Sequence record: PV691511.1
DNA: 64,000 nt
Reading direction: 5' to 3' (one strand)
From: Escherichia phage WPEC2
Part shown: in pieces, positions 30,279-31,027 of the stretch
Layout of the letters: each line of letters opens with the position of its first letter
How positions within the stretch are numbered: position 1 is the first letter of the stretch
Made by a program: the position numbers and the translations under genes
Notes under the pieces: generated by a model
The model's database searches: none
Seen by the model: only the letters and a program-made list of their open reading frames with translations
Told to the model about the DNA's origin: nothing

Positions 30279-30761
30279 ATGTCACAAGAACAAGATAACA
30301 CAATTCAAAAATATGCTCGACCAGAAGAAGTAGTTGAGATTCCGTTAGATGGAAACAGATCTGTTACTTTCCGTATTATGAAGTGGAGTCCATCTAAAGT
30401 GTTTGACAGGATTCCAGAATTAGGTAGTGTTCTGGTTGTTCCTATGACTATGTATAGCACAGCAACAATGTCCGCAGACGAAGACCTTGAGTCACGTATT
30501 GCTATGGCATTGATCCAACTTTTTGCAGGTTTGGAAGAAAAGAATTTAACTGTCTTTTTGCGTAAAATTTTAGATGAGGTTTATACTCAAGACGGTTATA
30601 ACGTTGCAGAAAATTTTGATGAATTATTTATGGCTCACCCAGAACTAGTGTTAGATCTTACTGCTAAAGTTCTGGAGGTAAACTACGGCCCTTTTTTCAA
30701 ACGAGGTTTCGGAAAACTGTTCACACAGCTTCAGGCGATGACGAGTTTAGCAGCAAATTAA
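30279..30761 (+). CDS. tail assembly chaperone (zero-frame product)
   Basis: Position just upstream of tape measure; contains slippery heptamer near its 3' end. Confidence 0.55.
   Translation: MSQEQDNTIQKYARPEEVVEIPLDGNRSVTFRIMKWSPSKVFDRIPELGSVLVVPMTMYSTATMSADEDLESRIAMALIQLFAGLEEKNLTVFLRKILDEVYTQDGYNVAENFDELFMAHPELVLDLTAKVLEVNYGPFFKRGFGKLFTQLQAMTSLAAN
30691..30697 (+). promoter_or_regulatory. candidate -1 programmed ribosomal frameshift site (slippery heptamer T TTT TTC)
   Basis: Zero-frame codons CCT TTT TTC; the -1 frame is open from 30692 to the stop at 31027. Confidence 0.5.
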
Positions 30762-31027
30762 CACCTGCGATTGAACATGCTATCGACATAGCAACGAAAA
30801 CCCTTACTTTGAAGTGGTATGAGGTTATTCTTTGCAAAGTCGTTAAAGATACCTCGGAAACACTGAAAACATTGGATAACTACGGTGTAGATTATCTTTT
30901 AAAACTATATGAGTATTTAACATACGAAGAGTATGTTGAAGCCATGTATGTTAAAGACACTTCAATAAAGAGAAAACATCAAAACCAGACAAATAAAATG
31001 TCAGATTTGTTTAAGAAACTTGTTTAA
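30692..31027 (+). CDS. frameshift extension of the tail assembly chaperone (-1 frame)
   Basis: Open -1 frame contiguous with the slippery site and ending just before the tape measure gene; includes track ORF 30809-31027. Confidence 0.45.
   Translation, partial: FFQTRFRKTVHTASGDDEFSSKLTPAIEHAIDIATKTLTLKWYEVILCKVVKDTSETLKTLDNYGVDYLLKLYEYLTYEEYVEAMYVKDTSIKRKHQNQTNKMSDLFKKLV

Follow-up and report, generated by a model that had tools for sequence, protein, structure and literature searches.

The window analysed here, a stretch of 64,000 nucleotides from Escherichia phage WPEC2 (sequence record PV691511.1), contains a tail assembly chaperone gene that very probably gives rise to two proteins: a short product read in the zero frame (G), and a longer fusion (GT) produced by -1 ribosomal frameshifting at a slippery run of ten bases close to the gene's 3' end. 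A programmed -1 frameshift had been predicted at this place in an earlier note on the same DNA, and the prediction gains support at the level of sequence from the conservation of the slip site, of its register and of the protein encoded in the -1 frame, and from the absence of an independent start for that protein. As far as sequence can tell, the locus has every feature of the conserved chaperone frameshift of the G/GT type (Xu, Hendrix and Duda 2004). It is a previously unannotated case of a very well known device, well supported but ordinary.

The gene that carries the slip site is identified as a tail assembly chaperone by several matches. Residues 29-143 of G match the Pfam family Phage_TAC_15 (PF21822) with 84.3 bits (the gathering threshold is 22), the protein matches phrog_3840 ('tail assembly chaperone') with an E value of 2.8e-55, and its homologue in phage phAPEC8 is named a tail assembly chaperone in RefSeq; these matches, and the position of the gene between those for the tail tube and the tape measure protein, bear out the identity given in the earlier note. 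A profile search of the PDB with G returned one weak, near full-length match, 5ir0_A ('Uncharacterized protein ORF19', E 0.021), which may be a solved relative of the chaperone family, and NCBIfam gave no meaningful match.

Slippery run and -1 reading frame

The zero frame at positions 30687-30701 reads GGC CCT TTT TTC AAA, with codons starting at 30687, 30690, 30693 and 30696, and T_TTT_TTC at 30692-30698 stands in it as an in-register heptamer of the form X_XXY_YYZ, as the earlier note had said. A second in-register heptamer, C_CCT_TTT (30689-30695), was absent from that note; it overlaps the first, and the two together make up a slippery decamer (Table 1). In the -1 frame, the TAA at 30665-30667 is the last stop before a stretch that stays open from 30668 up to the next TAA, at 31025-31027; this stretch covers 24 nucleotides upstream of T_TTT_TTC and 109 codons downstream of it. 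Of the earlier description of this frame, the end at 31027 and the absence of any stop between 30692 and 30809 stand, while the opening has to be moved from 30692 to 30668; the frame was also said to end just before the tape measure gene, and the measured gap to the TTG start codon of that gene at 31048 is 20 nucleotides. The zero and -1 frames overlap by 94 nucleotides (30668-30761), with the slip site inside the overlap. As an alternative, the +1 frame was considered and rejected, being open for 7 codons only.

Both heptamers belong to the class H_HH.U_UU.Y, which is listed with the most efficient motifs for -1 shifts in E. coli; among tetramers, U_UU.C and U_UU.U rank just after A_AA.G there (PMC4066793). 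A slip on either of them would yield the identical fusion of 249 residues, with the junction ...VNYGPFF/QTRFRK..., and the diagnostic tryptic peptides would be VLEVNYGPFFK for G and VLEVNYGPFFQTR for the GT junction.

Conservation among divergent phages

A tblastn search with the hypothetical fusion matched 358 phage records, many of them as two pieces in two frames. The comparison was made over 13 GenBank lineages, namely the window and 12 others: phiWec186, phi92 and KP13-16 from the Stephanstirmvirinae, the subfamily of the window, and rV5, Hena1, Mydo, SSE121, CR8, DU_PP_IV, ChuuTotoro, Av-05 and UPEC06 from the Vequintavirinae. These lineages share as little as about 24-31% amino acid identity with the window protein, and T_TTT_TTC is nonetheless in register within the overlap in all 13; the -1 frame runs for 109-131 codons, opens 9-24 nucleotides before the heptamer and ends 11-79 nucleotides before the tape measure gene. 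The same heptamer was found at 39 of 39 loci from IMG/VR (24 distinct local contexts), with -1 extensions of 101-127 codons, a count qualified by one of the two scan patterns having included the slip-site peptide, such that the peptide, although not its codons, was ascertained.

When the codons of the whole gene are aligned for 12 lineages, the heptamer stands out as the longest run of nucleotides that does not vary. Invariant third codon positions number five among 181: one belongs to a Trp codon, which has no synonym, three lie in the heptamer, and the fifth lies in the motif GGTTTCG a few bases downstream. The first base of the heptamer is T whether the codon it completes specifies Pro, Cys or Ser, and because T is retained across all three, the alignment indicates that the heptamer is under selection at the level of the nucleotide and not of the amino acid.

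The fusion proteins of the 13 lineages align from end to end, the junction consisting of NYGxFF, one or two further residues, and RFR; beyond it the T part comprises a variable linker (rich in Gly and Ser in the Vequintavirinae) followed by a conserved C-terminal domain, SLxW[YF]...LLKxxEYLD. The zero frame is also kept past the slip site: pairwise identity is 39% in its tail and 43% in the body of the gene. Where residues are identical, the codons are identical too in 42% of cases upstream and in 65% within the overlap. GGTTT at 30705-30709, part of the near-invariant GGTTTCG, is the second longest invariant run of the gene. GGTTTCG was considered as an RNA element and rejected as a structure; since no pairing partner was found for it, its invariance seems best explained by the translation of both frames, and by these measures the overlap is coding in both frames. 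The earlier note had named a conserved chaperone-frameshift arrangement of tailed phages, and just such an arrangement (gene order, overlap, heptamer, and a -1 open reading frame (ORF) that has no start of its own) is kept in the divergent relatives. A sequencing error or pseudogene was rejected as an explanation, the T6 run and the conserved zero-frame tail being present in more than 50 independent genomes.

In the 20 GenBank or RefSeq records inspected there is no joined coding sequence and no frameshift annotation, and the second half is in every case either called a 'hypothetical protein' or omitted. It appears as a separate coding sequence in phAPEC8, WPEC4, phi92 and other records, and gene callers call ORFs of 64-85 codons in all homologues, as would be expected if the downstream frame were an independent gene of 72 codons beginning at TTG 30809, with the heptamer merely encoding a conserved Phe-Phe pair. 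However, that TTG is the first start codon available (the -1 frame contains no ATG, GTG or TTG from 30668 to 30808), the 20 nucleotides before it (GCAACGAAAACCCTTACT) contain no Shine-Dalgarno sequence, and it falls within the conserved C-terminal domain of the T part. Among the homologues of the T part in a large protein collection (n = 18, 64-85 residues), the called starts are spread over at least six alignment columns. Conservation of the -1 frame, moreover, reaches 37 codons upstream of the TTG, up to the slip site, no lineage has a -1 stop between the slip site and the supposed gene, and the heptamer does not vary at its synonymous positions, not even where the residue encoded differs. 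An independent gene is extremely unlikely on this evidence, and we judge the 72-residue 'hypothetical protein' to be an annotation artefact, its sequence being in all likelihood the C-terminal part of GT. Its match to phrog_16039 (unknown function; E 9.9e-45) covers only the 72 residues that gene callers annotate, and the whole -1 extension matches no Pfam family. An AlphaFold2 model of the T part, built from a shallow alignment, is helical and weak (predicted local distance difference test 71, predicted template modelling score 0.40), and a Foldseek search of BFVD found one unnamed homologue only.

The arrangement might instead be a product of chance or a decaying remnant, in which slipping is negligible and only the 160-residue protein matters, as this AT-rich genome (39% G+C) has many in-register heptamers: 90 occur in window ORFs of at least 100 codons, three of them within the chaperone gene. 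After such heptamers the -1 frame stays open for a median of 5.5 codons, as against 109 at T_TTT_TTC, and the latter's extension past the zero-frame stop (266 nucleotides) is the furthest among the heptamers of the window. The sole longer -1 extension, in the ORF 22628-22975, was set aside, that ORF overlapping a longer ATG-initiated ORF (22693-23172) in another frame and being probably spurious. An open -1 frame of more than 100 codons that encodes a conserved protein in every lineage, across both subfamilies and the outgroups described below, is not compatible with untranslated sequence, and chance or decay is the least probable of the explanations considered.

Two more distant myoviruses, reached by a search with the rV5 fusion, served as outgroups. 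Aeromonas phage PhAER-3 has T_TTT_TTC in register (AGT TTT TTC), with a -1 frame of 142 codons and a homologous T domain. In the Barbavirus outgroup, Rheinheimera phage Barba35A (MK719754.1), the homologous place reads YGCLTSGKSF and has no T-run; G_GGA_AAG (1524-1530 of the extracted stretch) stands in register instead, 61 nucleotides before the stop and a few codons away in the homologous overlap, and a -1 ORF of 126 codons encodes a homologous T domain, with the frameshift again unannotated. In the same phage, the T ORF is separated from the tape measure gene by a reverse-strand gene for a DNA-binding protein.

The conserved element outside the Barbavirus outgroup is a homopolymer run, and conservation of a T-run alone would fit two models equally: slippage by the ribosome, or slippage by RNA polymerase, which would add one U on T6 such that a subset of mRNAs encoded GT in a single frame. 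Bacterial RNA polymerase, however, needs runs longer than T6 if it is to slip productively. In the Stephanstirmvirinae, the conserved C before CCT extends a heptamer in codon register and not the T-run, and Barba35A has no slippage-prone homopolymer at the equivalent place. Six bases also fall short of the 9-10 bp RNA:DNA hybrid (PMC5009743). The replacement of the T-run by G_GGA_AAG, with the architecture kept, argues both against a property of the T-run as such and against polymerase slippage, which we regard as highly unlikely; this exchange of heptamers is the best available argument, as read from the genomes compared, that ribosomal -1 slippage is the selected feature.

Proposed slippage and its known counterparts

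We infer the following course of events for the -1 ribosomal slip. The majority of ribosomes would terminate at 30761 and release G, while a minority would slip back by one base on C_CCU_UUU_UUC, the transfer RNAs (tRNAs) in the P and A sites (Pro and Phe, or Phe and Phe) re-pairing in the -1 frame and translation running on to 31027. By analogy with G/GT of phage lambda and E/E+E' of phage P2, the N-terminal domain common to both products would cover the tape measure protein, and the T domain, made less often, would bring in the tube protein; the frequency of the slip would set the ratio of G to GT, and neither protein would be retained in the virion. In phage phi92, gp132 and gp133 are both absent from the list of virion components determined by cryo-electron microscopy, and gp130, gp131 and gp134 are present (PMC13450770); the absence fits chaperone products that stay outside the virion and lends the proposal indirect support.

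Two features near the slip site may raise its frequency. In Stephanstirmvirinae-type contexts, the codon before CCT always ends in C (GGC for Gly, TCC for Ser, GCC for Ala), and GGC is a minority Gly codon (26 of 201). This C, retained while the residue changes, preserves a second in-register heptamer, C_CCU_UUU, and with it a slippery run of ten bases; the Vequintavirinae, which read GGN TGT TTT TTC, have no second heptamer. The other feature is an upstream GGAGG, 10 nucleotides from C_CCU_UUU and 13 nucleotides from U_UUU_UUC, which resembles a Shine-Dalgarno sequence; for -1 stimulators of that kind, spacings of 9-14 nucleotides have been reported (PMC5009743). It is composed of the minority codons CTG and GAG; in the neighbouring genes GAG makes up 24% of the Glu codons, and the frequency of GGAGG is 0.6 per kb. 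We regard it as a candidate stimulator only.

Several observations weigh against a programmed slip here, or against its proposed stimulation, in addition to the ascertainment of the slip-site peptide in the IMG/VR scan. The GGAG/GAGG core is found in most lineages and is missing from Certrevirus and Mydovirus, and GGAGG overlaps a conserved Leu-Glu-Val/Ile motif, by which its conservation is confounded. The downstream stem-loop or pseudoknot that the earlier note had envisaged as a stimulator did not appear as a conserved structure: single-sequence folds of six segments gave z-scores from -0.84 to +0.98 and were no stabler than shuffled sequences; RNAalifold found no pairs among nine Vequintavirinae, and among four Stephanstirmvirinae a consensus of only -1.9 kcal/mol, in which the slip-site stem pairs the U-run itself; and an Rfam scan (E<=1) gave two sub-threshold small RNA matches only, both outside the slip site. 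In the literature we found no evidence for the fusion in this clade from proteomics, reporters or ribosome profiling. Among the homologues of the T part in a collection of 5.8 billion proteins there was likewise no natural in-frame fusion of G and T, all of them being ORFs of 64-85 residues; we count this search neither as support nor as contradiction. A search of the literature and databases also found no description of a frameshift in the Stephanstirmvirinae or Vequintavirinae (phAPEC8, phi92 and the relatives of rV5).

It is possible, although we put this forward as a doubtful suggestion, that the tandem C_CCU_UUU_UUC offers two consecutive chances to slip, assisted by GGAGG and with no 3' structure, and raises the ratio of GT to G clearly above the approximately 1:30 of lambda, perhaps tuned to a long contractile tail. 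As a separate observation, the phage has five tRNA genes clustered at 122-688 of the window (Gly-UCC, Gln-UUG, Pro-UGG, Ile-GAU and Met-CAU), among which tRNA-Pro(UGG), at 375-451, is able to read CCU, the P-site codon of the first heptamer; that it influences the slip at this step is pure speculation.

The best known system of this kind is that of lambda, in which the tape measure protein is the binding partner of both G and the G portion of GT, and the tube protein that of T, the two products being made at a ratio of about 30:1 and neither being found in the virion (Levin et al. 1993; Xu, Hendrix and Duda 2004, 2013, 2014; summarised in PMC5009743). The locus in the window resembles it in position, with the major tail or tube gene on one side and the tape measure gene on the other, in the -1 direction of the shift, and in the N-terminus that the two products share; the functional model proposed above, in which low-level slipping would set a fixed ratio as it does in lambda, is borrowed from that phage. 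By contrast, lambda is a siphovirus that uses G_GGA_AAG, a heptamer which among the Phage_TAC_15-type chaperones examined here is found only in the Barbavirus outgroup.

The closest analogue with a contractile tail is E/E+E' of P2 (Christie et al. 2002), which slips at TTTTTTG and has no downstream RNA structure (PMC3091744), and whose shift frequency is two to three times that of lambda (PMC5009743); with P2 as precedent, a chaperone frameshift in a contractile-tail context is not unusual (PMC3091744). Both systems have a T-run (TTTTTTG in P2, TTTTTTC here), a downstream ORF that lacks a ribosome binding site, and no downstream RNA structure. They differ in that no sequence similarity was detected between them (the Pfam family here being Phage_TAC_15), in the sizes of their products (160 and 249 residues here, 91 and 142 in P2), and in the second overlapping heptamer and upstream GGAGG that are added in the Stephanstirmvirinae. 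In its Shine-Dalgarno-like GGAGG 10-13 nucleotides upstream, within the 9-14 nucleotide range, the site also resembles -1 shifts of the dnaX and IS911 type; unlike these it has no downstream hairpin or pseudoknot, and its GGAGG, a candidate stimulator, is not conserved in all lineages.

More recently, a chaperone frameshift has been proposed for the Vandenendeviridae (Pakpunavirus) and Andersonviridae in a December 2025 paper, which describes these families as related to the Vequintavirinae, with a -1 frame uninterrupted in all genomes and an invariant poly-T motif, GTTTTT (PMC12846349). They too are large myoviruses, related to the phages considered here, in which the second ORF is mis-annotated as a hypothetical protein (PMC12846349). 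The TG TTT TTT C of the Vequintavirinae contains the GTTTTT motif as described there, whereas the Stephanstirmvirinae have CCC in place of the G, which creates the double heptamer.

In the phages considered here, the second half of the chaperone frameshift is routinely mis-annotated as a separate small gene with an arbitrary start. The correct feature for the window is the joined coding sequence of GT given in Table 1, annotated with ribosomal slippage, and the main value of the finding lies in annotation and in experiments, not in concepts. Phages of this group are common in therapy and biocontrol collections and a structure of phi92 exists, such that GT gives a testable handle on tail assembly. 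The heptamer, invariant across two subfamilies and exchanged for another classical heptamer in an outgroup, amounts to a natural experiment; modest further interest comes from the doubling of the heptamer, from a possible 5' stimulator and from the exchange in Barbavirus.

Gene neighbourhood

Across bases 28300-33100 the window shares 100% identity with Escherichia phages WPEC4, WPEC6 and Mt1B1_P17 and about 99% with phAPEC8, and it belongs to a phAPEC8-like coliphage (genus Phapecoctavirus, subfamily Stephanstirmvirinae), whose relatives are myoviruses of about 150 kb. The local gene order is sheath, tube, chaperone and tape measure (Table 1). The earlier note had placed the chaperone in a contractile-tail context, and the sheath and tube genes found here agree with this, their products and that of the tape measure gene being homologues of gp130 (sheath), gp131 (tube) and gp134 (tape measure) of phi92, as assigned by cryo-electron microscopy (PMC13450770).

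Table 1. Coordinates in the window of the chaperone locus, its coding and candidate regulatory features, and the adjacent tail genes
Feature	Position	Strand	Product or basis
Sheath gene	28334-29707		phrog_205, E 2.9e-100
Tail tube gene	29754-30233	+	phrog_280, E 4.1e-35; homologue phi92 gp131 is the tube by cryo-electron microscopy
Terminator-like hairpin, gap between tube and chaperone genes	30239-30258	+	Homologous phAPEC8 site annotated as putative terminator
Zero-frame tail assembly chaperone, short product G	30279-30761	+	160 residues, 18.2 kDa
GGAGG, Shine-Dalgarno-like candidate 5' stimulator	30674-30678	+	Suggested by spacing to slip site
Slippery decamer C_CCT_TTT_TTC (two overlapping heptamers)	30689-30698	+	In-register reading, conservation
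-1 extension, T part	30698-31027	+	109 codons and TAA, read after the putative slip
Predicted fusion GT	join(30279..30698,30698..31027)	+	249 residues, 28.8 kDa
GGTTTCG, near-invariant doubly coding motif	30705-30711	+	Gly-Phe in frame 0, Arg-Phe-Arg in frame -1
72-residue 'hypothetical protein' of GenBank records	30809-31027	+	TTG start; judged to be the C-terminal part of GT
Tape measure gene	31048-33036	+	phrog_16051 'tail length tape measure protein', 1248 bits

Over 31048-33175 of the window, public records differ in how they treat the tape measure gene, its start being placed 114 nucleotides later in WPEC4 than in phAPEC8; the TTG at 31048, which has a GAGG 8 nucleotides upstream, looks like the better start. 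In the WPEC4 record an additional ORF of 147 nucleotides is called across the 3' end of the tape measure gene. The chaperone and tape measure genes form a unit flanked by two terminator-like hairpins, the one listed in Table 1 and another at 33043-33060, both of them annotated in the phAPEC8 record, and the second hairpin is followed at 33074-33103 by a near-consensus sigma-70-like site (TTGACA, 18 nucleotides, TACAAT; 11 of 12 matches, with a TG). The flanking hairpins and this site suggest read-through expression of the chaperone and tape measure genes, weaker than the expression of those for the sheath and tube.

Some public records of related phages carry labels that call for comment. The phi92 record (FR775895.2) has a 'Hypothetical tRNA' annotated within the sheath gene gp130 (164-256 of the extracted stretch), which is probably an annotation artefact, because ARAGORN finds none in the homologous region of the window. 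The DNA of 'Acinetobacter phage vB_AbaM_ABPW7' is 100% identical to the window across 28300-33100, and several 'Campylobacter phage' records are as close to rV5 as are its own relatives (A135, for one, shares 99.6% identity with the rV5 fusion protein); these records may carry wrong host labels, or the samples behind them may be wrong.

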